Below, one piece after another: positions 4,566 to 64,000 of a stretch of 64,000 nt of DNA; the first letter of the stretch is position 1; each line of letters starts with the position of its first letter. The DNA lies in IMG/VR virus record IMGVR_UViG_3300046518_000157, positions 24,398 to 88,397 of that record; one strand, 5' to 3'. A program made the position numbers and the translations under genes. The DNA comes from a virus (Duplodnaviria > Heunggongvirae > Uroviricota > Caudoviricetes). Below the pieces are notes generated by a model that worked only from the letters and a program-made list of their open reading frames with translations, was not told where the DNA came from and did not search any database.

Positions 4566-4931
4566 CTATACCGTGTATTCTATTGATTCAATTCCTGCCT
4601 GTTTGATAGCCATCATGCATACGGGACAGGGCTTAGCCAGTCTAAGTTCACCAGCGTTACCTACCCTTACGACTACTATCTTGGCAGGGATTCCATTCTT
4701 TACTTTTACTAAAGCAGCTACCTCAGCATGTAGCCAGTGACGATGACTGTTCCCAGTCTTCTTAGCTAACTCAGCCTGTCGAGGATGAGTCTTCACATAT
4801 GAGTTAGTTCCAGTGGCTAAAATTTTGCCCTTGCGATCAAGCACCGCTGCTGCTATTCGATACCTACCTGTTTCTGGTTGAGCTGAGTCAAGAGCCAACC
4901 TTTTAAGTTTTTCTATAAGTCTACTACTCAT
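4566..4931 (-). CDS. CMP/dCMP-type zinc deaminase (dCMP deaminase or TadA-like)
   Basis: HAEVAAL (H-A-E zinc ligand) and PCPVCMMAI (P-C-x-x-C) motifs. Ends with a TAG stop codon. Confidence 0.65.
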   Translation of the reverse strand: MSSRLIEKLKRLALDSAQPETGRYRIAAAVLDRKGKILATGTNSYVKTHPRQAELAKKTGNSHRHWLHAEVAALVKVKNGIPAKIVVVRVGNAGELRLAKPCPVCMMAIKQAGIESIEYTV

Positions 4932-4978
4932 GGTTTACCCTACTGTGCGTCTCCCTTATACCAAGGATTCGCAAGAAA

Positions 4979-4994
4979 CTGGACACATGTCCAG
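4979..4994. promoter_or_regulatory. Perfect 16-bp palindrome ctggacacatgtccag (operator-like)
   Basis: Read directly from the sequence; a second near-identical palindrome lies at 5512-5527. Confidence 0.5.
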
Positions 4995-5511
4995 AAATGT
5001 CCGTTTTCATTGAAACGAGAAAACGTATATAGAACAATGAGTTATAGCACTGCTGTCCAATTTGTCCAGAAACTTTTTAGAAAACTGGACAGGCTCTAAG
5101 CCTTTGTATATAAGGCTCACAGCGATTTTGTCCAGTTTTTTTCACTTTTTTCTAAAAACCATACCTCACTTTCTATTAGAAATAAAAAACTAGCAAAAAG
5201 GTTACCTCACCCTCTTATATATAAATATATTTTTTAAAAGTTCAAATATAAATATATATATAGTACCCCCATATTCCTGGACTGTTAGGGTGAACCCTAT
5301 GTTGTTACTTTTTTGTTTTTTTATTTATCAAATAGAAAGTGAGGTATGGTTTTTGGAAAAAAGGCCAAAAAACTGGACAATCGGGCTCTCAGCCTTATGC
5401 AGCAAGGGTTTCAGCTGTCCAGTTTTTTTTAGAGAAATTGGACAAACTGGACACGCTCCCCGCAAACCCTTTGTTTATAAGGCTCTAAGGTTTTTGGACA
5501 AAATGAGATTT

Positions 5512-5527
5512 CTGGACATGTGTCCAG
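5512..5527. promoter_or_regulatory. Second perfect 16-bp palindrome ctggacatgtgtccag
   Basis: Read directly from the sequence. Confidence 0.5.
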
Positions 5528-5543
5528 TTTTTTCTCAGAAGGC

Positions 5544-5570
5544 TAAAAAAAGCCGAGTCGAAACCCGGCT
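5544..5570 (-). terminator. Rho-independent terminator downstream of rsr
   Basis: Hairpin agccgag-tcgaaac-ccggct followed, on the minus strand, by a T7 run. Confidence 0.6.
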
Positions 5571-5593
5571 TTTACTTACTACAACCTTTCAAC

Positions 5594-7252
5594 TTACAGG
5601 TTGCCAGCAATGAATTCCGAAATGAACCTCGGAGTTGCAGTATCGAAACCAACCACGTCAAGCATATTGCGGTCAGTCGGATCAGCAATGCTGAAGTTGT
5701 TCACAGCCATACCAACCGTGATCAGCTTAGCTTCAGGCTTGTTCATACCCTGACGATACTTGCGTACCGCTTGGAACACGTGTTGGCCGCCAGACCACGT
5801 TTCGTTATCCGTGTAAACACAGACAGCGTCAACGTCCCACTTATGTTGAAGCGCATACTCGAACGGCAATGCACAATTCGTACCACCGAAGTTGTGCGCA
5901 CGAACCTTACCACACGCCGTAGCCAAAGTATCTTTGGATGTGATCCCGAGATCCTTAAAGCCATTAGCGCCGCTCGTGAAACCACGGATCTCAGTCCACG
6001 GCTCTGTGCGAGCGGTGACCATAGCCATGATTGCCGTACCTTCAGCACAGCTCAACAGAGGCGTATTGCTGATCGGAGCACTCATTGAACCCGATACATC
6101 CAGGCCCAACAGAATGTTCTTACCGGACGGCTCTATCGCTTCAAACGAAACATAGAACGCATCTTCCAGATCAGCCACAATGGTACGGGCCGGAGTCCAT
6201 ACGAGTGAACCCTTATCGCCACGGCCTTGCGCGTAGATCTTCTGCGCAACTACGATTGACATCGGATGCAGACGTTCCTTGCGGATGGCTTCAACATCGT
6301 GGAGCTTGGCAGATACAATCTTGCTCGTTTCCGAGAAAGGCTTGATCAAACCAACTGCCGTGAGCTTGTTCAGGTTACGAACCAGCGCACCCAGACCCAT
6401 GTGAGGCACAAGAGCTTCCCAAACCTTCGGGTCATTCTTCTGCTCATTCGGAATCATTTCGTGCGTGAGCTTGAAATCCTGGATCAGCTTAATCAATGTC
6501 TTCGTATCTGCAGTCTTGGCTTGCTCTGCAGCAATCAGAAGTTGAGGCACGAGATCGCCTTGCGACAGCGACTCTGCACCCTTGTTGATAAACTTGTACA
6601 GGTTCTGACGAACCGGATCGGTGCCAGGCTTGACGTGAGCCAGACGCATGATGTCCTTGTGGGACCAGCCGTCACGTTGCTTGTACTTTACGATCTGGAA
6701 CGCAAGCTTATCGGTATCCTTTGAGGAATACCAGTTCTGAACTACATTCTTGAGCGAACGGCCCCAACCACGCATACCGTTTGCGAATGCAACGAAGTGC
6801 ATGAAGTGCGTGCCAGTACGAGCCACGAGATTCAGCTTATCCTTCGCATACAGCTTGGTTGCCACGTCGCCGTGGGTGAAGACCAGAGCCATGACCAGAA
6901 GCGCATAGTCATTGTTCTTTGCACGGCCAGCTTGGCTGATCTCTACCACACGATCAACCACAACCTTGCCATTTGCCTTGATGAGCTTCACGATCTCATC
7001 AGTGTTCTGCTTCGTGATATCCTTTTCGCTAGCGTAGAACGTACCGCCGCTCGTGCCGATGATAAGGAATCGATCCAGCTTTTGAAGGCCAGAGATCTCA
7101 AATACAAAGCCGCCAGCGTTGTTCTTGACCTGAGCTACCGGAGCGTTGCCAGCCGGGCGATTCTGCGGCGTGGTACGTGCAACAGTACGGGTATTGGTAT
7201 TCTTTGCGAGGGTATTGAATGACATTTGAGGCTCCTTAAGTTTAGGGAACAA
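5594..7252 (-). CDS. rsr: Ro60/Rsr ortholog (TROVE domain plus C-terminal vWA domain)
   Basis: RFLIIGTSGGTFYASEKD...ISQAGRAKNNDYALLVMALV matches the Ro60 TROVE signature (human Ro60 FLCFGSEGGTYY...[20 protein letters not shown]). A vWA MIDAS motif (LLGLDVSGSM) is present. RBS GGAG sits upstream of the ATG. Confidence 0.8.
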   Translation of the reverse strand: MFPKLKEPQMSFNTLAKNTNTRTVARTTPQNRPAGNAPVAQVKNNAGGFVFEISGLQKLDRFLIIGTSGGTFYASEKDITKQNTDEIVKLIKANGKVVVDRVVEISQAGRAKNNDYALLVMALVFTHGDVATKLYAKDKLNLVARTGTHFMHFVAFANGMRGWGRSLKNVVQNWYSSKDTDKLAFQIVKYKQRDGWSHKDIMRLAHVKPGTDPVRQNLYKFINKGAESLSQGDLVPQLLIAAEQAKTADTKTLIKLIQDFKLTHEMIPNEQKNDPKVWEALVPHMGLGALVRNLNKLTAVGLIKPFSETSKIVSAKLHDVEAIRKERLHPMSIVVAQKIYAQGRGDKGSLVWTPARTIVADLEDAFYVSFEAIEPSGKNILLGLDVSGSMSAPISNTPLLSCAEGTAIMAMVTARTEPWTEIRGFTSGANGFKDLGITSKDTLATACGKVRAHNFGGTNCALPFEYALQHKWDVDAVCVYTDNETWSGGQHVFQAVRKYRQGMNKPEAKLITVGMAVNNFSIADPTDRNMLDVVGFDTATPRFISEFIAGNL

Positions 7253-7689: not shown

Positions 7690-7835
7690 GATGGGGATAC
7701 GGGCAAAAGGCGTGCTAGAAGATTTTACGTGCTCTATCCGCTAAGCTATACAACCCTCAAGGCTGCAGTTGGATTCGAACCAACGCCACGACTTCCGAAT
7801 AGTGATAATCTAACACTAACGGCCCGTAAAGAGGA
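7690..7835 (-). ncRNA. Y-RNA-like tRNA mimic, unit 1 (permuted tRNA-like domain)
   Basis: Minus strand carries a T-arm (GTTGG-TTCGAAT-CCAAC, plus 7772-7790), then a closed 7-bp acceptor-like stem-loop (TGCAGCC-ttgag-GGTTGTA), then TA, then a D-arm (GCTT-AGCGGATA-GAGC, plus about 7735-7755). It is preceded by a GGGCCGTT...GATTATC element. Confidence 0.5.
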
Positions 7836-7899: not shown

Positions 7900-8045
7900 A
7901 AAATTGAAGCTGAACAAAAGGCGTACTGGAATTTTTAGCGCTCTACCAACTGAGCTATGCGGCAACCCGTAAGGCAACCACAGAAGGACTCGAACCTTCG
8001 ACCTCTCTATTAACAGTAGATAAACCAATACAAGCGGTTCAGCGA
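7900..8045 (-). ncRNA. Y-RNA-like tRNA mimic, unit 2
   Basis: Minus strand carries a T-arm (GAAGG-TTCGAGT-CCTTC, plus 7988-8005), then an acceptor-like stem closed by an 11-nt loop (TGTGGTT...TGCCGCA), then TA, then a D-arm (GCTC-AGTTGGTAG-AGC, plus 7933-7960). There is no anticodon arm. Confidence 0.5.
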
Positions 8046-9484: not shown

Positions 9485-9772
9485 TTACACTACGGTAAGT
9501 TCTTGCGTAATGAAGTCTTGCGGCGTAACATCTGCTGCGTTAGCCAGCTTGACCAGCGTCGAGAGTTGCGGACGATAGTTACCAGCCAGAGCACCAAGGC
9601 GGCTGAACTTTTCAATGCGACGGATAGTGCTTTCTGAGAGCTTGGTTGCAGCTGCCATATCACTGATCGTCACTTCGCTTTCAAGACGGAGATTGACAGT
9701 GTTGCGAACTACGTTACGTGCTGCTGTTTGAATATTGAGTGCTGACATCTTGAACCTAAAACAAAGCCACAT
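9485..9772 (-). CDS. Helix-turn-helix (XRE-like) transcriptional regulator
   Basis: TISDMAAATKLSESTIRRIEKF is a typical HTH segment. The true start is probably an internal Met (MSALNIQ...). Confidence 0.5.
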   Translation of the reverse strand: MWLCFRFKMSALNIQTAARNVVRNTVNLRLESEVTISDMAAATKLSESTIRRIEKFSRLGALAGNYRPQLSTLVKLANAADVTPQDFITQELTVV

Positions 9773-9824: not shown

Positions 9825-9853
9825 CTTATACCAACAAGTACTAAATTATTGAA

Positions 9854-10743: not shown

Positions 10744-11112
10744 TTATATCCTCAGAAGTTTAACAAAGATATCAACCTTATTAGACAACGCCATTTCAAA
10801 AGCCATAACGTCTTCTTCATAAGAGCTATCTGGATCGTAATAATCAAGTCTAGATCCTAACTCGTAGCACAAGTCAAATACCTTACGTGAAATGCTAGGA
10901 CTAAAGATTAAGCCGTAAGCTTCTTCCCAAAGATTCTCATTTCGAGCATTGCACGTTATTTTGGTTACCGTTTCGTACATGCTCGCAAGTTCGTTAAGCT
11001 TTTGAGCTAAGGAACTCTCCAGCGAGTTTTGAGACGAGCTTTCCATCGTATTTCCCCGCGTAGTTGTTTTTGAAGATAGCCATGATTTTGCCGATGTTAT
11101 CCAGTGCAGCAT
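10744..11112 (-). CDS. Hypothetical protein (start likely internal, about 11046)
   Basis: ORF overlaps the upstream ORF by 118 nt in another frame, so the true start is probably the internal Met (MESSSQNS...). Confidence 0.4.
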   Translation of the reverse strand: MLHWITSAKSWLSSKTTTRGNTMESSSQNSLESSLAQKLNELASMYETVTKITCNARNENLWEEAYGLIFSPSISRKVFDLCYELGSRLDYYDPDSSYEEDVMAFEMALSNKVDIFVKLLRI

Positions 11113-11419
11113 TCTCGATGATTACCTTGATTTCAGTTTCTGACAACTGAGTCGGCATGAAGCCTTGAAGAAGCTGGCGTTCAGCAATGAGAGCGCCTCG
11201 CTTAAGGTCATCCTTCTCATGTGCAAGCATTTCCGCAATGCCTTCAAGACCTTTCTTGACGATGCTAACTACTTCTTCATCAGTAGGGTCACGATTCTCT
11301 TTCTTCGTAGCTACTTGCTTGGCTTCACCAAGGACAGTACCAAGCTTAGTAAACGAAAAAGAATCACCGAGTTTCAGGGCTTCAACCCGCAGTTGTTGAA
11401 GGTGTGCGTAAAGAGTCAT
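10994..11419 (-). CDS. Hypothetical protein
   Basis: 141-aa ORF in the co-oriented gene string. Confidence 0.45.
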   Translation of the reverse strand: MTLYAHLQQLRVEALKLGDSFSFTKLGTVLGEAKQVATKKENRDPTDEEVVSIVKKGLEGIAEMLAHEKDDLKRGALIAERQLLQGFMPTQLSETEIKVIIENAALDNIGKIMAIFKNNYAGKYDGKLVSKLAGEFLSSKA

Positions 11420-11727
11420 ACCGAGTACCCCTTGAATTCACCTTCCATACGATAGAACTCAACGAAGATACCAAGGTCGTCAGAGCTTACGGTACCAAGC
11501 TGCCACCAAGCGCCATTGATGTGATAGAAATCGGTTCCTTCAAACGTACTCTTGCGATAAGGTACCTTCACAGGAAGCGGATGTACGCCCATCGAAGCTT
11601 TTGATACATCGTTAACCAGGCGATAGATAAAACTCTTATATCGAGTAGGAGGAGGGATAACGCTATCGATAAGCCTTGCTACTTCAATAGCGTCTTGCTC
11701 AGTTTTGTCTAAATCTTGTGTGCTCAT
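11416..11727 (-). CDS. Hypothetical protein
   Basis: 103-aa ORF with a 4-nt start/stop overlap with the downstream gene. Confidence 0.45.
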   Translation of the reverse strand: MSTQDLDKTEQDAIEVARLIDSVIPPPTRYKSFIYRLVNDVSKASMGVHPLPVKVPYRKSTFEGTDFYHINGAWWQLGTVSSDDLGIFVEFYRMEGEFKGYSV

Positions 11728-52981: not shown

Positions 52982-55402
52982 TTAAAGACGCGGATCCATT
53001 TCTTTCTCTTGGTTGAGTTGCGAGATCATCTTCACAATCAACTCAGTCATTGCAGGACCGTTGTCAGCCGAAAGCATCTTCGTTGCCAGTTCGAACTCCT
53101 TGATAGAGACCTTCAGTTTACCACCAACTCGCTTCTGCTTGCACAGTGCTTCGTAGCGACGTTTGTAGTCGAAGCCATAGACGAGAGTCAGGTAATTTTC
53201 ATTCCGGACTTTCATATACGGTGCTACGTCTTCAGGTCCGGCGAGAGGTTTAATGACAACACCCTCCATGCCGTGTTCGATAGTCAGTTCCTTGAAGAAG
53301 TTTTCAGCCATTTGCAGCTGGCTCTCATCATCGAGATCGATGACCAGCCAGTCATCCCCATTCACTTCATCGAATGAGTCAGCTTGTTCAACGCGAGTAA
53401 ATACATTGCCATCGATTTTCAGAATTGCAAACGGCTTGTAATATGGCTCGCCAGTTGCGGAGTACAGATTCAGCGTATCCGAAAACGTCTTCAGATCGTT
53501 CTCAAGCAAATCCTGAGCATCGATCTTCTGCTTAAAGTCAAGCTTAGCAAATTCTTCGTCCTGAGCAAGTGTCGAAAGCTCATAGTGTACAAGACCTTCA
53601 TACGCTTTGAACTGCTCTTCAACAAGACCAGTACCAAGAGTCGTCCACGGCAGAAGCTCACCGTCCAGAATAAGTTCATCGAACGAATTCGGAAGGAACT
53701 TTTCTTCATACTCAGCAAGAAGCTTCTGAAGCATAACAGTAAGCTCTTCTGTCATGCGAATCTTGAATCCATTTCTGGAAACAAGGAAACACTTCTCCGG
53801 TTGACCGTGATACAGATACGCCTGACAACGTGAGCCCATGTACTTCGGTTGAATAGCAACCTGATCTACACCCTTGTCTTTGAAGTACTTAAGACCAGCT
53901 TCAAGGCTTTCGATCTTACCTTCGGTTGACGGAGCCGGAGCCATCGTACCAGAAATGTACTTAATGCCGTTCTTCAGCGTACGATTCAAAAACTTCATGT
54001 CGTCTGGAGACAACTTATAATCATAAATGCTGAAGGGACGCTCCTTCAAACCGATAGGTACGGTCAAGTCAGACTTCAACTCTTTTTGATGCTCGACCAG
54101 CGACTCGGTCTTGACATCGACGTAAACATATCGATTGTTTTTGTACGAAAACGCAGTAAGCTTGTTACCGTACACTGCTCCGGTATCCAGGAAGATCTTG
54201 TTACGGAACTCAATCTTACCGGCATTGTGAGCAACGTGACCGAATACATGAATAGGATGGTTACGAACAGCCTGATCGAAGATGAACTTGTACGCTTCAC
54301 GATAGTCTTTATCACGACGACCGAAAAGATTACGCTGCGCCTTAAGTGCATCATTGCTCAGCTTACCCAGATACTTGTTTTCACAAGGAGCATGGGTTAC
54401 ATACACGGTTCGTATATCCCGTCCAAATACTTTCAGGAACGGAGTAGAGTGATTGTCAAACAAGTCAACAAGCACGGCGGCAAGGTCAGGACGTTCCAGG
54501 AGAACCTTAAGTGAAGACATATACTTAGCCTCCAGTTCAAGATCAGGATTTTTGATTTCGCCCTTGATACGCTTCACAGCGTAGCTCTCATGGTTTCCGT
54601 GAATGATACGGCCACCTTCGTCAACAAACTTTGAAACCAGCCGAAGCATGTTCTCCGTGTCATTGCCTTTGTCTAGATAATCACCTACAAGAACGTTGAT
54701 ACTGTCCTTAGGCAACTTCTCCAGCATTTCAGTAAGACCCTTAACGTGCTCATGGGTATCACCGATGATGTTCAGCTCTTTGTTCGAAGTCAAGTACAAG
54801 CTGCTCTTGGCATAAACATCGAGGTCTTTGATTTCAACTTCGATATCAGCCCAGTACTTCGGATCACGTTCACGGATACGGATGTTTCCGTCGTGTTCTT
54901 TTCGGCCAAGGTTAGGAAGAACGTGCTGCTTAAAACGAGCTGCACTGCTGTCTACTACTAGCTTTTCTTCCGGCGTAGATTCAGACGAATATGACTTATT
55001 GGTGTACTCGAAAGTAACCAGTTCAGTACGATACTCGTTGGTTTCCGCAAGAGTCCTGACTTTCTTTCGGAACTCGTCGTTCATGCCAGTCGTATCAACG
55101 ATCACGAACTCGCTGTTGACAGGGAACATGATCGCAGCTTCAAGTTTCGCCATCAAGACCTTAAACGCGGCCTCTGAAGCCTCCGCCATGAGCGGGGAAT
55201 ACCGATGGAGGTTCTTATGGCCGTAAAGGCTCTCACGCTCGGAATCGGAGCTGATAATAGGAATTGCACAGCTCGCTCCAAGCCCTGCTTTGGCCATTTC
55301 TTCGCCAAGCGCAAGTTGAAGTTGGTGTGAGAACGTGCTCTTACCGCACATCGAAGGTCCGACGAGAATAAAAACGGTATGGAGCTTAGTTTCGATTTTC
55401 AT
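52982..55402 (-). CDS. pnkp: Polynucleotide kinase-phosphatase with a C-terminal ligase-like domain (bacterial Pnkp-type RNA repair enzyme)
   Basis: N-terminal P-loop (LVGPSMCGKST), a central calcineurin-like phosphoesterase (IIGDTHEH, GDYLDKGND, HGNHE), and a ~350-aa C-terminal domain with a candidate nucleotidyltransferase lysine (QPKYMGSR). Confidence 0.7.
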   Translation of the reverse strand: MKIETKLHTVFILVGPSMCGKSTFSHQLQLALGEEMAKAGLGASCAIPIISSDSERESLYGHKNLHRYSPLMAEASEAAFKVLMAKLEAAIMFPVNSEFVIVDTTGMNDEFRKKVRTLAETNEYRTELVTFEYTNKSYSSESTPEEKLVVDSSAARFKQHVLPNLGRKEHDGNIRIRERDPKYWADIEVEIKDLDVYAKSSLYLTSNKELNIIGDTHEHVKGLTEMLEKLPKDSINVLVGDYLDKGNDTENMLRLVSKFVDEGGRIIHGNHESYAVKRIKGEIKNPDLELEAKYMSSLKVLLERPDLAAVLVDLFDNHSTPFLKVFGRDIRTVYVTHAPCENKYLGKLSNDALKAQRNLFGRRDKDYREAYKFIFDQAVRNHPIHVFGHVAHNAGKIEFRNKIFLDTGAVYGNKLTAFSYKNNRYVYVDVKTESLVEHQKELKSDLTVPIGLKERPFSIYDYKLSPDDMKFLNRTLKNGIKYISGTMAPAPSTEGKIESLEAGLKYFKDKGVDQVAIQPKYMGSRCQAYLYHGQPEKCFLVSRNGFKIRMTEELTVMLQKLLAEYEEKFLPNSFDELILDGELLPWTTLGTGLVEEQFKAYEGLVHYELSTLAQDEEFAKLDFKQKIDAQDLLENDLKTFSDTLNLYSATGEPYYKPFAILKIDGNVFTRVEQADSFDEVNGDDWLVIDLDDESQLQMAENFFKELTIEHGMEGVVIKPLAGPEDVAPYMKVRNENYLTLVYGFDYKRRYEALCKQKRVGGKLKVSIKEFELATKMLSADNGPAMTELIVKMISQLNQEKEMDPRL

Positions 55403-56709
55403 GCTTGATCCTTGTTCTTAGTTACTACCACCATCGTCGAAGTAGCAATGTTATTTACACTATCACCGATTCCTTGAACAGAAATAGAGATTGCATGACC
55501 TTCCGAAACATTCCAGAACCAGTCACCGAATTCTTTAAGGCCCGGCTCCCACTTGTGATCATCATGACGGAACTGTGTTTCGTCCATCAGATAGTTCACA
55601 TTGAATTCCTTGTTAGGAACCGTGAGAATCAGCTTGTTGAAGTTAGTCTTCAGCACGGCTTGAATCAGCTCTGCTGCGACATCCTTTTCCATGTGTTCAA
55701 GCACTTCAGTGATGAGTACATCAGCTCCATCGAATAGAGCGCTGCAATCGTCAATTGATTCAGGAGTTGCTGCTTCTTTGAAGGTGATATTCTCAACTCC
55801 TCGACCACTGGCTTTCCCCACGGCGTTCTCACGTACTTCGTCATCCGCTTCATACGCAAGGATTTGTTCATACTTTGCACTGAGCGGGATCGAATAATTG
55901 AGTTCGCCGCACCCAATGTCAATGAGGACCGACCCTCCTCCCAAATGCGGGAAGATAGCCTCTTTACGTTGACTGAGAGTGTCCCCGTGCCAGAGGTTAA
56001 TACTGGGCGTATCGAGCAACGGCTTGTTTTTAGCAAAGGTTTCACGATTCGTAAACACATTCCGTTTAAAGAGGTATCGGATGAAGTAAGGTGCATCGAT
56101 GCGATTAATTGCATTGATGTACTTTTCAATGATATCTCCCTTAAGGTTGACGTAAATGCTCTTTGTCGTAACGCAGAACATCAAGAAAATAACCATTGCT
56201 GCATTCAGAAGATGATGAACACTAGGTCCGACAATGCGAACTTTGTATGCATGACCAGAAATCAGTTCTGCATGAAAGCTGTAGCCTTGATCGAAACCAA
56301 ACGGCCCATTGAAATGTTGCTCCATGTGCCTAAGCGTGCTTGCACTGCGAATCTCAACCGTAGTTTCGAGCCATGCGCTAAAAGGAACACTAGCATCTTC
56401 TTCCTGATGTTCTTTGAACGCAGTTGCCAGGCAGTTCGTCATCAGGCTAATCGGAAGGTACGGCGAAGCATAGCGAGTACGATCAAGATACTCAAACTCC
56501 TGGTCCCGCCCTTCGGCAAATGAGCAGTGCAGAGCATGATCCTTGAACCACAACCTAAAAGCTTGGTCTCCTTCTAGAAACCATCCGTACACTGAACCTT
56601 GTCGGATGGACTTCTTAAACGGATCTTTCGATTCACGAATCGTTGCGGGGTTTTTCTGAATGACCCAAGAAAACTTCGGGTTACTAGACCCAAGAGTAAG
56701 CACTGACAT
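55399..56709 (-). CDS. hen1: Hen1-like RNA 3'-terminal 2'-O-methyltransferase
   Basis: C-terminal Rossmann MTase motif I (VLIDIGCGE) with Hen1-type metal ligands (EVLEH ... RHDDH). A 4-nt overlap couples it to pnkp. Confidence 0.6.
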   Translation of the reverse strand: MSVLTLGSSNPKFSWVIQKNPATIRESKDPFKKSIRQGSVYGWFLEGDQAFRLWFKDHALHCSFAEGRDQEFEYLDRTRYASPYLPISLMTNCLATAFKEHQEEDASVPFSAWLETTVEIRSASTLRHMEQHFNGPFGFDQGYSFHAELISGHAYKVRIVGPSVHHLLNAAMVIFLMFCVTTKSIYVNLKGDIIEKYINAINRIDAPYFIRYLFKRNVFTNRETFAKNKPLLDTPSINLWHGDTLSQRKEAIFPHLGGGSVLIDIGCGELNYSIPLSAKYEQILAYEADDEVRENAVGKASGRGVENITFKEAATPESIDDCSALFDGADVLITEVLEHMEKDVAAELIQAVLKTNFNKLILTVPNKEFNVNYLMDETQFRHDDHKWEPGLKEFGDWFWNVSEGHAISISVQGIGDSVNNIATSTMVVVTKNKDQA

Positions 56710-60013: not shown

Positions 60014-61723
60014 TTACGCCTTCTTTTTAAATAACATATCGTTAATTGCTTCTTGAGTTACTCCACGATGGACTTGTTCCACCTGGCCCCAGTTAAAACC
60101 GATTTCACCTTCAACACCAATCGGAAGAGTCAGCCAATCGAAATTCTCTACTGGCCATTCATTCATGTAATAGAATGCCGTCTCGATTACTTCTGCCGCA
60201 CGCTCAATCGGTACTTCGAATTCAACTGAGTCATACACAGTACAGATACTTTTACAACGAGGGTCGATCTTTTGAATTGCTTGGTTAAGATGCGCAAATG
60301 TAACTAGACCAAGAGTCGAAGTTGCACTTTGAATCCGTACATTCTGAGCATTGCGCAGTGATGCGTTATAAGCTGCGGTCTTCTTGAATACTTCCTGTGC
60401 TACATACTCATGTTTGTACTGACCAAATGGTGTCCAGACTTTCTGGTTCCAACGTGCCATATTGTGTGACTCTTCAATATAATCCTTAACTCCAGGGTAT
60501 GCATTGAAGTACATATTAACCAGACGTTCAGCTTCAGACTTGTCCAACTGCAACTGCATTGCAATACCACCTACTGAAGAACCATAAAGTATCGAAAAAG
60601 TTAAAACTTTTGCAACTTGTCGCATGCGTTTGTATTCTTTTTGGAGAGAATTACTCTTATCTTCCAAAATATGAATATATTCTTCGTATGACACGCCCAT
60701 CATCGCACTGGCAGAATACGAGTGAAAGTCCAAGCCCTCGGCAATCGCCTTAAGCATATTCTTGTCACGACAGATTGCGCCTAGAATCTTAACTTCAGCA
60801 GAACTAAAGTCAAAGGCAATAAATACATTGCCGCTATCAACGATGTAGCACTCTCGTACATTGTATCCATGTTTAGGACGTGGAAGCTGCGTAAGATTAG
60901 GACTGTCGCCAGTGATCCGAAAGCTGCTAGTGCCAAACATGTTATAGCTAGGATGAATCCGACCATCACGCTTAACAAAGTCCTCCACATACGTCTTGAT
61001 GAAAGTATTGTGAACACTATTAATATCCTTTCTCTTAGCCATATCTGCAAGGAACTGCAGCTTAGGATCTGGAGCATCATACTGGTTAGCCAGAGGATTT
61101 AACCCTGCCAGTGTGAGCAATGCCGCACCGTCAGTTGCATCATCACCAGACTTTGTCTTAAACGGAGCTACGAATCCAAGTTCTTCATAAAGCAGCTTAC
61201 CAACTTCTGTACCAGAGTCTAGATTGATTCTTTTACCGATTGCAGTAAAGATTTTTTCATCAAACTCTTCAACTTCACGAACCATCTGTTCAGAGATCTT
61301 GCGGTTACGATCAACGTCGTATGCCATGCCATTGATTTCAAGATCGATAATGAACTCGTGACAGAACATTTCTGTGTTGATCACTGATTCGATGATCGCC
61401 GGAGCCTTTGCCTTAATCGGCGCTCCATTGGGACCTACAATCTGCACTTCTTGAGGTTTTACTAAATCAGACCATAGACCTGTCAGGACTTCTGAAGTGA
61501 CAATGTTATCAATACCTGCATAGACGTAAAGATCTTCACTATCATAATCTTCATACGTTCTATAAATCTTCTTCTCAGCTACAGGTTCTTCAACCTTCGG
61601 TTTAGGCTCTGCTTTCTTGCGAGTCTTTTTCCCAACAGGTGTTTCTCGTACTTCAGCAATGACCTTCTCTTCTAGTACTTGCTCAGTCGAGGTCTTTGGC
61701 TTTGGGTCAATACGCTTAATCAC
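60014..61723 (-). CDS. DNA polymerase I (family A), polymerase domain
   Basis: Motif A (DFSSAEVKILG), motif B (RQVAKVLTFSILYG) and motif C region (VHDSVEFE). Confidence 0.8.
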   Translation of the reverse strand: MIKRIDPKPKTSTEQVLEEKVIAEVRETPVGKKTRKKAEPKPKVEEPVAEKKIYRTYEDYDSEDLYVYAGIDNIVTSEVLTGLWSDLVKPQEVQIVGPNGAPIKAKAPAIIESVINTEMFCHEFIIDLEINGMAYDVDRNRKISEQMVREVEEFDEKIFTAIGKRINLDSGTEVGKLLYEELGFVAPFKTKSGDDATDGAALLTLAGLNPLANQYDAPDPKLQFLADMAKRKDINSVHNTFIKTYVEDFVKRDGRIHPSYNMFGTSSFRITGDSPNLTQLPRPKHGYNVRECYIVDSGNVFIAFDFSSAEVKILGAICRDKNMLKAIAEGLDFHSYSASAMMGVSYEEYIHILEDKSNSLQKEYKRMRQVAKVLTFSILYGSSVGGIAMQLQLDKSEAERLVNMYFNAYPGVKDYIEESHNMARWNQKVWTPFGQYKHEYVAQEVFKKTAAYNASLRNAQNVRIQSATSTLGLVTFAHLNQAIQKIDPRCKSICTVYDSVEFEVPIERAAEVIETAFYYMNEWPVENFDWLTLPIGVEGEIGFNWGQVEQVHRGVTQEAINDMLFKKKA

Positions 61724-62969
61724 TTTCTACCTCATCTTCTTCAGTTTCTTCAGTTTCTTCGGCGGCATTCTTAGTTAGTTTAGGTAGGAGGTCTTCATAA
61801 CCACCTAATCCAGTCCAAGGAACAATATCCCAGACTGCAGTTTTCAAACTATAAGTACCCTGCGCACCACTATCAAGACTATGAAGAACAAGCAAAGTAT
61901 CAAAAGCCATATTTTTCACCCGTACTTTGGTAGTGTGCCAAATGTACAAGATATCGAACTTAATGTTGTGCCCTACCTTCGGTCTTGGCCCTTCTAAGAA
62001 AGGAGTAACCAAAGCCCATGCTTCGTCTCCACTATACATCTTGTTCTCACGATGCCACAGTGGAACTACCAATGCTTTAACTTCTTTGTCAATTGGATCT
62101 CGATACCCGAACTGAATACAAAGCAGTTTGGCATTTTCAGCCAGCCCGTCTAAGCTGGTCGTTTCAGTATCTAGACTGATGATTGAGTTTGCTGGCAAAC
62201 CATCAATGATAGCCATGAACTCTTTTACTTCTTCAATGCTTCGTGCAATGCGAATACGGTTCTGTTTATAAAACTCAATCGCTTCAGCTAACGTAGGCGG
62301 TTTAAGATGACCACGAGCCATTGCTGCGGCCTTCTTGAAGTCTCGGAGAATCACACCATACAACTCTTGTCCCCAGAAGGCTCCAGAGGCGTTCTGACGA
62401 ATCATCGTCAATGCTCTTGGATGGATTGTGATAACTACGTTATCAACATACTCACCACGATTACCAGTATTGCTGTGTTTCTTATAACCCAACGCTTTAG
62501 TCACAACTGTTGCCAGACTGATGATGACCTTTGGTTTACAACGATCTATCTCAGCTAAAAGATAAGGTTTACATTTCATTAGCCGTGTTGCAGTTGGTGC
62601 TTTCCCTTTTGGAAAGTCTTCTTCTGTCGGACTACATTTAAGCAAGTTCACCAATCGGTACTTCAACGTTCCAAACCCTGCTTGTTTACAGAGATGGTGA
62701 ATGATATCCTGCTGGATCTTTTCTTGCTGACCCTCTACTCTATCCCACTTCCCAGCGGGTGCCGCGTGATCCTGGATAATCAGAATATCAACTTCGTTTT
62801 GAGCAAGGCGAACAGCATCATACGATTTACATTTGAGCTTACAGACTTTGTCGCAATACGTCTTACTGATCTTGCTAAAGTCTTCCTTGCTATGGATTGC
62901 CACTTCTACAGACGTTGTAATCTTTCTCTCATACAACTCGTTCAGTGGAAGATCTGAGATCTTCGCCAT
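61716..62969 (-). CDS. 3'-5' exonuclease domain protein of the split family-A polymerase (N-terminal extra domain possibly UDG-like)
   Basis: Exo I motif ISLDTETTSLD; ends 8 nt into the polymerase gene start. Confidence 0.6.
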   Translation of the reverse strand: MAKISDLPLNELYERKITTSVEVAIHSKEDFSKISKTYCDKVCKLKCKSYDAVRLAQNEVDILIIQDHAAPAGKWDRVEGQQEKIQQDIIHHLCKQAGFGTLKYRLVNLLKCSPTEEDFPKGKAPTATRLMKCKPYLLAEIDRCKPKVIISLATVVTKALGYKKHSNTGNRGEYVDNVVITIHPRALTMIRQNASGAFWGQELYGVILRDFKKAAAMARGHLKPPTLAEAIEFYKQNRIRIARSIEEVKEFMAIIDGLPANSIISLDTETTSLDGLAENAKLLCIQFGYRDPIDKEVKALVVPLWHRENKMYSGDEAWALVTPFLEGPRPKVGHNIKFDILYIWHTTKVRVKNMAFDTLLVLHSLDSGAQGTYSLKTAVWDIVPWTGLGGYEDLLPKLTKNAAEETEETEEDEVESD

Positions 62970-63034: not shown

Positions 63035-63517
63035 TTAGTGACTATAGTACGCTGAAACCATCATTACTGGTTCCGTGTAGCTTATACCATACTTCTCACA
63101 AAAATTGCGCAGCCTATCGATATCATCTTGTGTTACGCCAAGACATTCTTTATCAAGCTCTGCTGGTTCCCAGATTTCTCCTAGAGATAAATTCTTAGTA
63201 TACAGAATATAACCAGGATAGTCACACGTGCCATACTTGGTAATACCTACTCCATAGTTTTCGAAAGCGTTATTTTTCCGCTTCCAGTACTCGCTGTATT
63301 CCTTGCTATTTTTCTCACAGTACTCTTCTTCAGGGCGCTTAATATTGAGTTCTTTTAAAATCAATTCCTGAATAGCATCTTCGACACCATCTTCAAGCTC
63401 TTCTATACCCAGAGCATTAGCGAGAGCTTTCTCGAATTCTTCGAACTCTTCCCATGCACTATCTGAACTACCTACATTTATCCCGAAGGACAAATTCATA
63501 TGAATATCCAAACCCAT
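63035..63517 (-). CDS. Hypothetical acidic protein
   Basis: 160-aa ORF. Confidence 0.4.
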   Translation of the reverse strand: MGLDIHMNLSFGINVGSSDSAWEEFEEFEKALANALGIEELEDGVEDAIQELILKELNIKRPEEEYCEKNSKEYSEYWKRKNNAFENYGVGITKYGTCDYPGYILYTKNLSLGEIWEPAELDKECLGVTQDDIDRLRNFCEKYGISYTEPVMMVSAYYSH

Positions 63518-64000
63518 TACTTACCTTCATGAAAAATCTTGAATGAACCTTGACTTACCGGCAGGGACGTAAGCTTAGGAACTTCCTTTATAACCTCGAT
63601 TGAACTTCGCATTACTTCTCTTGAAGCTGGTTTGTTAGCATCGGGAATCAACGACCAGGTATGATCATCGATAGCCACCAGCCTCTTTACCTTCCTAGTG
63701 AACGTACCTTGCCTGAAGCATTCAAGGTAGTCGTAGAAGTTAATGCCTACTTCGTGAAGCATTTGAATCTTCTCAGCAGTGTTTTTATGAAGCAACTCTG
63801 AGTTGTTGAAGACCGAGTGCGCAGCCATGCTGACACTGTTCTTACGAGCATCCCACTGACGCCAAACAAAGTAATCATACGCCTGATCCCATTTTGGGAA
63901 TTGAAATACACGAGCGTCGAACACAGGACGTGCTGCGAACTTGTTTGGCAAAAAGCCTTGAAGATAGCTGTTAAAGATCACCGAGCACTTAGCAGCGTAC
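63517..64000 (-). CDS. Possible Thg1-like protein (tRNA 5'-end 3'-5' nucleotidyltransferase), C-terminal part; the 5' end lies beyond the window
   Basis: DARVFQFPKWDQAYDYFVWRQWDARKNSVSMAAHSVF resembles the Thg1/TLP conserved segment (...R.V.YP....V.DYF.WRQ.D..INNLYNT.FW), recalled from memory. The reading frame continues open to the window edge. Confidence 0.35.
   Translation of the reverse strand, partial: YAAKCSVIFNSYLQGFLPNKFAARPVFDARVFQFPKWDQAYDYFVWRQWDARKNSVSMAAHSVFNNSELLHKNTAEKIQMLHEVGINFYDYLECFRQGTFTRKVKRLVAIDDHTWSLIPDANKPASREVMRSSIEVIKEVPKLTSLPVSQGSFKIFHEGK

Follow-up and report, generated by a model that had tools for sequence, protein, structure and literature searches.

The 64,000-nucleotide stretch of the IMG/VR virus record IMGVR_UViG_3300046518_000157 analysed here (the window) contains a genuine cis element that is conserved, far from random and has so far not been described. 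It fills much of a 662-bp non-coding gap (4932-5593) between the stop of rsr, a Ro60/Rsr gene, and the start of a deaminase-like gene. The element is a cassette of about 560-600 bp in which short TGGACA sites and two inverted 17-mers are mirrored about an AT-rich core, and it recurs at three conserved loci of a phage genome of about 180 kb. A first-pass annotation, made from the letters of the window alone, had treated it as a single local feature of the rsr-deaminase gap, and this view has to be replaced by that of one among three dispersed copies. Tentatively, we read the region as a symmetric initiator-loading site, that is, as a replication origin. Hardly any large uncultivated phage has a known replication origin or global control region, and here the cassette stands out as a well-delimited and conserved cis element, present in three copies and marked by two invariant motifs.

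Architecture of the symmetric cassette

The features of the window copy and its edges are listed below by coordinates, strand and description; a half-site is TGGACA or its complement, TGTCCA.

4955..4963, minus: TGGTATAAG, phage-wide promoter-like 9-mer at the outer cassette edge, facing outward into the deaminase gene
4979..4994, unstranded: perfect 16-bp palindrome CTGGACA-CA-TGTCCAG, CTGGACACATGTCCAG, terminal site pair
5054..5068, minus: two tandem half-sites (TGTCCA on the plus strand at 5054 and 5063), 9 bp apart, mirroring 5439-5453
5082..5142, unstranded: inverted half-site pair (TGGACA 5086-5091, TGTCCA 5129-5134), 43 bp start to start
5158..5174, plus: 17-mer ACCATACCTCACTTTCT, with 13-15 nt invariant in all copies and lineages
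5199..5215, plus: GGTTACCTCACCCTCTT, degenerate 17-mer in direct orientation immediately beside the AT core, only partly conserved in other lineages
5216..5262, unstranded: AT core, 45 of 47 bp A/T (95.7%), candidate DNA-unwinding element
5263..5300, unstranded: asymmetric conserved block, ACCCCC...TAGGGTGAACCCTA; GGGGGT and TAGGGTT (minus-strand reading) invariant
5334..5350, minus: 17-mer ACCATACCTCACTTTCT, inverted copy
5367..5431, unstranded: inverted half-site pair (TGGACA 5374-5379, TGTCCA 5416-5421) with A-run/T-run flanks, mirroring 5082-5142
5439..5453, plus: two tandem half-sites (TGGACA at 5439 and 5448), 9 bp apart
5495..5500, plus: extra outer half-site with no exact mirror partner
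5512..5527, unstranded: perfect 16-bp palindrome CTGGACA-TG-TGTCCAG, CTGGACATGTGTCCAG, terminal site pair
5545..5573, minus: rsr intrinsic terminator, GCCGGG...CTCGGC followed by T7, kept in relatives

The hexamer TGGACA/TGTCCA occurs 13 times as an exact match in the 547 bp from 4980 to 5526, as against 30 times in the whole 64 kb. At the rate seen outside the element 0.15 sites would be expected in this interval (Poisson P ~2e-21), and from base composition 0.26. The first-pass annotation had counted about 12 half-sites, and their density does lie far above what composition predicts. Similarly, with two mismatches permitted, CTGGACA-N2-TGTCCAG has two matches in the window (0.26 expected), and these are the two perfect 16-bp palindromes that had been placed at both edges of the region. 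The palindrome at 4979..4994, read on the minus strand, forms a small hairpin followed by TTTCTT; that at 5512..5527, read on the plus strand, is followed by TTTTTT and is terminator-like for transcription heading out to rsr. Across 91 sites from seven copies and several phage lineages the hexamer is invariant and carries an A/T-rich 5' flank, so that the extended site reads WWWYTGGACA, with G/C nearly excluded at -4 to -2 and a pyrimidine at -1 in all but one of the sites (90/91). As a separate observation, the hexamer is under-represented outside 4932-5593 (17 found, about 30 expected from composition), which could reflect avoidance of stray binding sites or merely codon usage.

From 4973 to 5533 (561 nt) the element is a single imperfect palindrome with its axis at about 5253.5. 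A repeat search resolved this into nested inverted arms at 4973-5006/5500-5533 (88%), 5054-5092/5415-5453 (77%) and 5093-5200/5308-5415 (77%), and the single-strand foldback reaches -131.9 kcal/mol, compared with -51.7 +/- 4.4 for shuffled sequences (z = -18.4). All of the core half-sites are mirrored about the axis: 5054 and 5063 answer to 5448 and 5439, 5086 to 5416 and 5129 to 5374, and the terminal palindromes pair with each other. The direct repeats of about 25 bp reported on the first pass are present as 21-nt segments, 90% identical, at 5098-5118 and 5465-5485, but they are not a separate signal, being the poorly conserved interiors of two site-to-site spacers.

The inverted ACCATACCTCACTTTCT pair brackets about 160 bp that hold the degenerate 17-mer copy, the AT core and the asymmetric block, the last of which interrupts the dyad symmetry. 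The AT core includes invariant runs of 24 and 11 bp and is the least stable 50-bp duplex in the 64 kb, at -44.3 kcal/mol against a mean of -67.7 (standard deviation 4.2; 5.6 standard deviations), the next lowest in the window being -53.1 kcal/mol. The wider AT-rich tract described earlier, at 5180-5270, is indeed 78% A+T. Beyond the cassettes, ACCATACCTCACTTTCT has two weak chance matches, one of them (45659) within a coding region. The 17-mer shares CCTCACT with the T3 promoter, and a promoter for a single-subunit RNA polymerase of the T7/T3 type was considered and rejected for this cassette-only motif. A T4-late-type TATAAATA promoter in the core was also rejected, as this sequence occurs four times in the window without enrichment.

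Conservation and dispersed copies

Seven complete copies from several lineages (Rsr 73-99% identical) were aligned. Invariant columns make up 39% of the element, and invariant runs of at least 5 nt fall nearly exactly on the half-sites, both 17-mers, 24 and 11 bp of the AT core, GGGGGT, TAGGGTT and one T-run, whereas the stretches enclosed by paired half-sites share just 35-58% identity from one lineage group to another. The eight core sites stand at offsets from the centre of -208R, -199R, -176F and -134R on one side and 111F, 154R, 177F and 186F on the other, and these offsets hold within 4 bp in nearly every copy sequenced at that arm. The main exception is the L013 copy, in which the right tandem pair is down to a single site; similarly, both half-sites of the tandem pair at 5054..5068 are found at matching offsets in six of the seven complete copies, and L013 retains one, with its offset shifted. 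The window copy has tandem pairs (9 bp) and inverted pairs and no run of three or more tandem sites, while other copies carry tandem arrays phased at exactly 10 bp, of three sites in L011 and five in L008. Outer sites differ in count and position from copy to copy. Furthermore, conservation follows a gradient, lowest at the sites nearest the promoter and highest at those nearest the centre.

The invariant sequence of the sites, their direct and inverted layout, their phasing and their fixed spacing over drifting spacers argue that the element is the footprint of an array of protein-binding sites forming a stereospecific complex, rather than an RNA or a coding sequence. This agrees with the earlier suggestion that the TGGACA sites are bound by protein. 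The exact 10-bp phasing fits a protein array and cannot be accounted for by RNA stems, and the centre-proximal conservation points to a function focused on the core rather than on the flanking promoters.

Other readings of the conserved sequence were rejected. Across 16 hairpin units RNAalifold recovered the half-site stem and no inner structure (covariation term -0.11 kcal/mol), and in putative core transcripts conserved structure was likewise limited to the half-site hairpin; with covariation absent outside the invariant half-site stems, a structured RNA was set aside. Rfam gave sub-threshold noise only for the element, which also disposes of a Y RNA or other known RNA downstream of rsr, the YrlA-like RNA of this phage lying upstream of that gene (7907-8028). 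As for coding capacity, the plus-strand open reading frame (ORF) at 5290..5613 that the first-pass annotation had called the only one in the region is present (and has no Pfam match), but it is accompanied by three smaller ones at 5062..5193 (plus), 5328..5465 (minus) and 5339..5488 (plus). The ORFs of the element are not conserved, and related copies carry non-triplet indels and stops.

Five IMG/VR contigs encode relatives of Rsr (73-99% identity), and in all five the element lies directly downstream of rsr. Scanning the same contigs for the core motif and for the pattern of 17-mer plus half-site brought out further copies, giving three per genome of about 180 kb, whose loci are conserved and separated by about 49, 58 and 75 kb. 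The type 1 copy, downstream of rsr, is that of the window. Type 2 lies about 49 kb from type 1, between divergent operons, and is inverted relative to types 1 and 3. Type 3 lies about 58 kb from type 1 on the side opposite to type 2, and alignment with relatives predicts its core about 0.8 kb past the right end of the window. The surroundings of type 3 form a replication module: an exonuclease, a 984-aa DnaG-type primase, an HU/IHF-family-like DNA-binding protein, the element, a Thg1-like protein and a split PolA. Wherever these three loci could be examined they held a copy, including in lineages whose Rsr is 73-76% identical, and the orientation of the core relative to the downstream genes is identical in all three copies. 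In their variable parts, copies within one genome are more alike than orthologous copies between genomes, and this pattern indicates that the copies are homogenised by recombination.

Several contigs end in the element. A 134-kb contig has the type 2 core at its start and the type 1 core at its end, a 46-kb contig of that sample seems to have the complementary arms at its two ends, and a 107-kb contig spans copy 2 to copy 3, beginning and ending inside them. A genome terminus or hairpin telomere was considered, and assembly breaks at a dispersed repeat are preferred; joined together, the pieces sum to about 180 kb. Metagenomic assemblies of this phage clade break at each of the three copies, and recognizing the element permits the pieces to be joined into genomes of about 180 kb.

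Outside this clade the element was not met. A metagenome scan found no additional family members, the cassette is absent from 185,579 bacterial genomes, and the extended palindrome has 21 scattered matches in bacterial genomes, about the chance level and without a clue to the host. The region has no DNA-level match among the isolate phages of INPHARED. The closest isolates by PolA are Salmonella phage Arash (181 kb) and Vibrio phages D69/D181/D148 (~187 kb), at about 46% identity; they were rejected as a source of homologues as too distant, and the gene order of Arash is not syntenic here. The Arash paper is silent on repeats and origins. The cassette belongs to none of the Rfam families or annotated phage features searched, and nothing of relevance came out of a literature search for phage elements that are likewise palindromic and multi-copy. 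Proteins adjoining the copies, considered as candidate binders, had no match in Pfam, PHROG or PDB.

Two observations concern the flanks of the other copies. Just past the type 3 copy (L013 ~11350-11560, also in L014 and L009) about 150 nt between a TGGTATAAG promoter and a strong terminator (CCGG...CCGG with T8 behind it) are conserved in all three contigs. With neither an ORF nor an Rfam match, this stretch is a candidate for a small RNA encoded ahead of the Thg1-like gene. The right neighbour of type 2 (L011 8996-9640, minus) encodes a protein of about 200 aa behind a conserved sigma-70-like promoter (TTGACA-17-GAGAAT) and is probably an early gene. By eye, its D...(E)SK pattern is like that of a PD-(D/E)xK nuclease, although Pfam and PHROG gave no match.

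Candidate functions of the element

As an origin, the cassette would act in cis, with a stereospecific nucleoprotein complex assembling symmetrically around the meltable core, and replication would most likely be bidirectional. A phage or host protein would bind the WWWYTGGACA sites of about 10 bp; each arm carries these in tandem pairs set 9-10 bp apart, in inverted pairs spaced by ~42-43 bp (some four turns of the helix) and in a 7-N2-7 palindrome at its end. The inverted ACCATACCTCACTTTCT 17-mers, which bracket the ~160 bp with the 47-bp AT core, would be read by this complex or by a second factor. Binding to both arms would bend or wrap the DNA, the AT core would open, and helicase and primase would then be loaded in both directions. 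Finally, the hairpins with their T-runs, the rsr terminator and the phage promoter at the edge together suggest that the core would be shielded from read-through, with downstream transcription restarting at the cassette edge. We infer each of these steps, including the binding and the identity of the binder, the melting of the core and the start of replication at the element, from the features observed.

Several of those features are the ones expected of an origin. An inverted-site palindrome centred on an AT-rich segment is a feature of dyad-symmetric origins, and an AT-rich unwinding region beside repeats is a feature of iteron origins. Furthermore, the sites form phased arrays, the three loci are conserved, and the type 3 copy stands inside a replication module. 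The first-pass annotation had offered either a multi-operator hub or an iteron-type origin; both still stand, and it is the origin-like reading that we put first.

By analogy, the design of the cassette most resembles that of dyad-symmetric viral origins, archaeal origins with inverted origin recognition boxes (ORBs) and iteron origins, although it appears larger and more complex than any of these. Like oriS/oriL of herpes simplex virus 1 (HSV-1) and core origins of the simian virus 40 (SV40) type, it is an imperfect palindrome on a meltable AT-rich centre with inverted sites in both arms; and, as in HSV-1, there are several copies per genome (three in HSV-1), one lies between divergent transcription units, and the copies are homogenised. 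However, those origins measure 45-144 bp rather than 560 bp, the cassette adds two motif classes and an asymmetric block, and no initiator like UL9 or T-antigen was identified for it. Iteron origins (lambda ori, F ori2, pPS10) share with the cassette short repeats phased at 9-10 bp beside an AT-rich region, and a half-site that serves both as an inverted 'operator' at a promoter and as a direct repeat (RepE/RepA dimer versus monomer). Their iterons are 17-22 bp long, as against 10 bp here, and the cassette differs in having mirrored sites on both sides of the AT region and in lacking a recognizable adjacent initiator gene, DnaA boxes and an IHF site. In archaeal oriC, too, longer inverted boxes (the ORBs; here the 17-mers) bracket the DNA-unwinding element, and there are three origin-like loci per genome, but the cassette has no adjacent Orc1/Cdc6 gene, its 17-mer is unlike the ORB, and the type of host or virus is different.

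Clusters of initiator repeats at more than one distant locus are also known from SPP1 (oriL/oriR) and P4 (ori/crr), and in P4 a short site (8 bp) occurs in both orientations and is bound by the P4 primase-helicase. However, the SPP1 and P4 clusters are not large palindromes, and the P4 binder is a known domain of the alpha protein, whereas the 984-aa primase encoded near copy 3 has no demonstrated domain for binding DNA sites. Lambda OR/OL arrays and the promoter early stem-loop (PeSL) cassettes of T4-type phages resemble the element in placing palindromes beside promoters and an intergenic terminator-like stem-loop with a promoter, but most of the cassette sites lie far from promoters, around the AT core, and the cassette, with just three copies, has ten times the size of a PeSL.

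A number of results weigh against an origin. No initiator gene (Rep, DnaA-like, lambda O-like or Orc-like) was recognizable beside any copy, and the element has no DnaA box (TTATCCACA with at most one mismatch, or TTWTNCACA), no IHF consensus (WATCAANNNNTTR, at most one mismatch) and no GATC cluster. Neither GC skew nor AT skew changes at copies 1 and 3; skew tracks transcription direction here and is therefore uninformative as an origin signal. In the distant relative L053 (PolA 58% identical) the cassette is absent between the primase and polymerase genes, although the TGGTATAAG promoter motif is retained; thus, the cassette is clade-specific and not a fixed part of the replication module. 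In addition, conservation of the AT core extends to its sequence, more than plain unwinding would require, and a specific binding site or a promoter would account for this equally well. Origin function is read here from sequence and is a tentative preference.

The edges of the cassette bear most directly on transcription. The 9-mer TGGTATAAG has 16 exact copies in the window, at the following minus-strand positions:

4955, 9825, 12764, 17927, 19696, 23188, 24877, 28349, minus: TGGTATAAG
31649, 33649, 37541, 46960, 52957, 56781, 57530, 63081, minus: TGGTATAAG

All 16 are on the coding strand ahead of genes, and the 9-mer is therefore taken as the general promoter-type motif of this phage. It probably defines a promoter class that belongs to the phage itself and resembles an extended -10, except that an invariant G takes the place of the T preferred by sigma-70; the copies have no conserved -35, and a weak TTGTA/TTAC signal is seen a few bases downstream. 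Wherever the edge has been sequenced, an outward-facing TGGTATAAG stands at an outer edge of the cassette, on the right in types 1 and 3 and on the left in type 2, at 4, 15 or 31 nt (4-31 nt) beyond the terminal half-site or palindrome, depending on the copy. The rsr terminator adjoins the cassette outside the repeat, and types 2 and 3 have no such terminator on their left flanks. Inside, the pair at 5082..5142, with A-run/T-run flanks and a poorly conserved interior, can fold as a terminator-like hairpin on either strand (-26 to -29 kcal/mol), and the pair at 5367..5431 is terminator-like on both strands (-22 kcal/mol). Both are followed by T-runs of T6-T8 in the manner of intrinsic terminators, and the two 16-bp palindromes also show the terminator-like pattern.

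The main rival account of the cassette, possible but in our view somewhat less likely, makes it a transcription control and insulator element. A dimeric helix-turn-helix (HTH) regulator on the TGGACA sites would repress or time the outward TGGTATAAG promoters, the inverted pairs would be intrinsic terminators, perhaps bidirectional, isolating the neighbouring operons, and the AT core may hold one or more promoters for non-coding transcripts of about 150 nt that would stop at these terminators, each with a conserved GAAAGUGAGGUAUGG. The 7-N2-7 geometry suits a dimeric HTH operator, and a palindrome lies 4-31 bp upstream of TGGTATAAG at the outer edge of each copy. However, that distance varies, the promoter-proximal sites are the least conserved, the eight core sites are 100-200 bp from any TGGTATAAG promoter, and TGGACA sites accompany just one of the window's 16 TGGTATAAG promoters. 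The first-pass annotation had proposed the HTH protein at 9485..9772 as a candidate binder. This is a genuine Cro/C1-type HTH protein, encoded 4 kb from the element, but TGGACA is absent near the promoter of its own gene (TGGTATAAG, 9825-9833), and site placement lends the link no support; nor is there, adjacent to the element, an autoregulated regulator gene, this HTH being the nearest.

The insulator part of this account draws on the four terminator-like sites (1.0 expected), with hairpins of -22 to -31 kcal/mol followed by T-runs, and on the base of the 5082-5142 hairpin, which stays paired in each of the two lineage groups. The T-runs of the other lineage group are retained mainly for the direction of the flanking genes. 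However, the hairpin stems are the invariant half-sites, and hence the pattern alone cannot separate a terminator from a site pair. TATAAG-like -10 hexamers do occur on the flanks of the AT core, but a sigma-70 promoter there is unconvincing (one 9/12 match, with the -35 lost in other lineages), the core lacks the TGG of the phage 9-mer, and RNA structure or covariation in the putative transcripts is limited to half-site stems, with no Rfam match. The shared orientation of the three cores relative to downstream genes suits transcription control, whereas 10-bp tandem arrays and strict mirror symmetry would be unneeded for simple operators. Should the cassette prove regulatory or insulating, it would mark operon boundaries and provide a new regulator-operator pair.

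If it does prove to be an origin, the cassette would join the few documented examples of tailed phages with several origins of dyad-symmetric design, and the TGGACA arrays and the 17-mer would serve as direct bait for finding a new initiator among the phage proteins, many of which have no known function. A more far-reaching version of the origin reading, which we think unlikely, is a hitherto undescribed kind of multi-copy phage 'orisome', in which three homogenised 560-bp foldback origins would split the ~180-kb genome into replicons, two unrelated invariant motifs would be read by proteins without known homologues, and the copies would also be insulated transcription boundaries. Recombination between copies would then, given the inverted one, yield genome isomers. 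Alternatively, the cassette would be a new class of cis element whose hairpin arms act as extruded cruciforms or as single-strand initiation signals.

It is improbable that the cassette is a relic or domesticated foldback element, similar to a miniature inverted-repeat transposable element (MITE), with arms that were transposon ends carrying several subterminal transposase-binding hexamers each, and copies that were ancient insertions. Its size of 560-600 bp, AT-richness and nearly perfect foldback would fit, as would the terminal inverted repeats (AAAAACTGGACA ... TGTCCAGTTTTT), the three intergenic copies, one of them inverted, and the confinement to one clade; short motifs in two orientations near the ends are also found as subterminal repeats in some transposons. 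However, comparison of the flanks revealed no copy with a target-site duplication, all three loci are filled wherever examinable, with no presence/absence polymorphism, no transposase was found in the window or the fetched flanks, and strong purifying selection on the 17-mers and AT core is unexpected for a dead MITE. Least probable of all is another DNA-handling site, for centromere-like partition or positioning, packaging (pac-like) or inter-copy recombination and inversion: the 16-bp 7-N2-7 palindrome shares the geometry of the F-plasmid SopB site and P1 pac has hexamer clusters around a central region, the copies are dispersed, with type 2 inverted, and do recombine, to judge from their homogenised variable parts, and TGGACA is scarce elsewhere in the window (17 versus about 30), but no ParA/ParB, TubZ/R, recombinase or invertase gene was seen in the window or flanks and no plasmid-maintenance gene in the window, and three pac sites of mixed orientation make little sense with headful packaging.

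Neighbouring genes and other features of the window

The window is part of a large phage with genes for nucleotide metabolism, replication and RNA repair, including 21 tRNAs, a ribonucleotide reductase, NAD-salvage genes, a split family-A DNA polymerase and a Pnkp/Hen1 RNA-repair pair. Every gene across these first 64 kb is on the minus strand. The genes referred to here are as follows.

4566..4931, minus: cytidine/dCMP-deaminase-like gene, 121 aa
5594..7252, minus: Ro60/Rsr gene (Pfam TROVE 3.9e-35, vWA_Ro60 4.9e-54)
52982-55402, 55399-56709, 63517-63981, 10994-11419 and 5594-7252, all minus: RNA-repair/tRNA-maintenance set

Upstream of rsr, a YrlA-like Y RNA was matched at 7907-8028 (minus; Rfam RF02553, 39.8 bits, E = 6e-7). 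The score is below the gathering score of 69, and the tRNA-like domain matches well; a second, weaker YrlA/tRNA-like match lies beside the first, at 7731-7788 (minus). Together, rsr and this RNA look like a phage Ro60-Y RNA module. They belong to an unusually rich set of RNA-repair and tRNA-maintenance genes, namely Pnkp (kinase-phosphatase-ligase), Hen1, a Thg1-like fragment (tRNA-His guanylyltransferase), a tRNA amidotransferase-like gene and Rsr/YrlA, that accompanies the 21 tRNA genes. Among the tRNAs at 38676-38751 and 37443-37515 (both minus) is one with a CUA anticodon, labelled Pyl by ARAGORN and with the top Rfam tRNA score (74.8 bits); near it, a tRNA was called with an abnormal 2-nt anticodon. 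The CUA tRNA is thus of the amber-suppressor type and may hint at stop-codon reassignment or suppression. Finally, the family-A DNA polymerase (60014-62969, minus) is split into an exonuclease (61716-62969) and a polymerase (60014-61723), and the same split is found in the nearest isolates, Arash and Vibrio phages D69/D181/D148.

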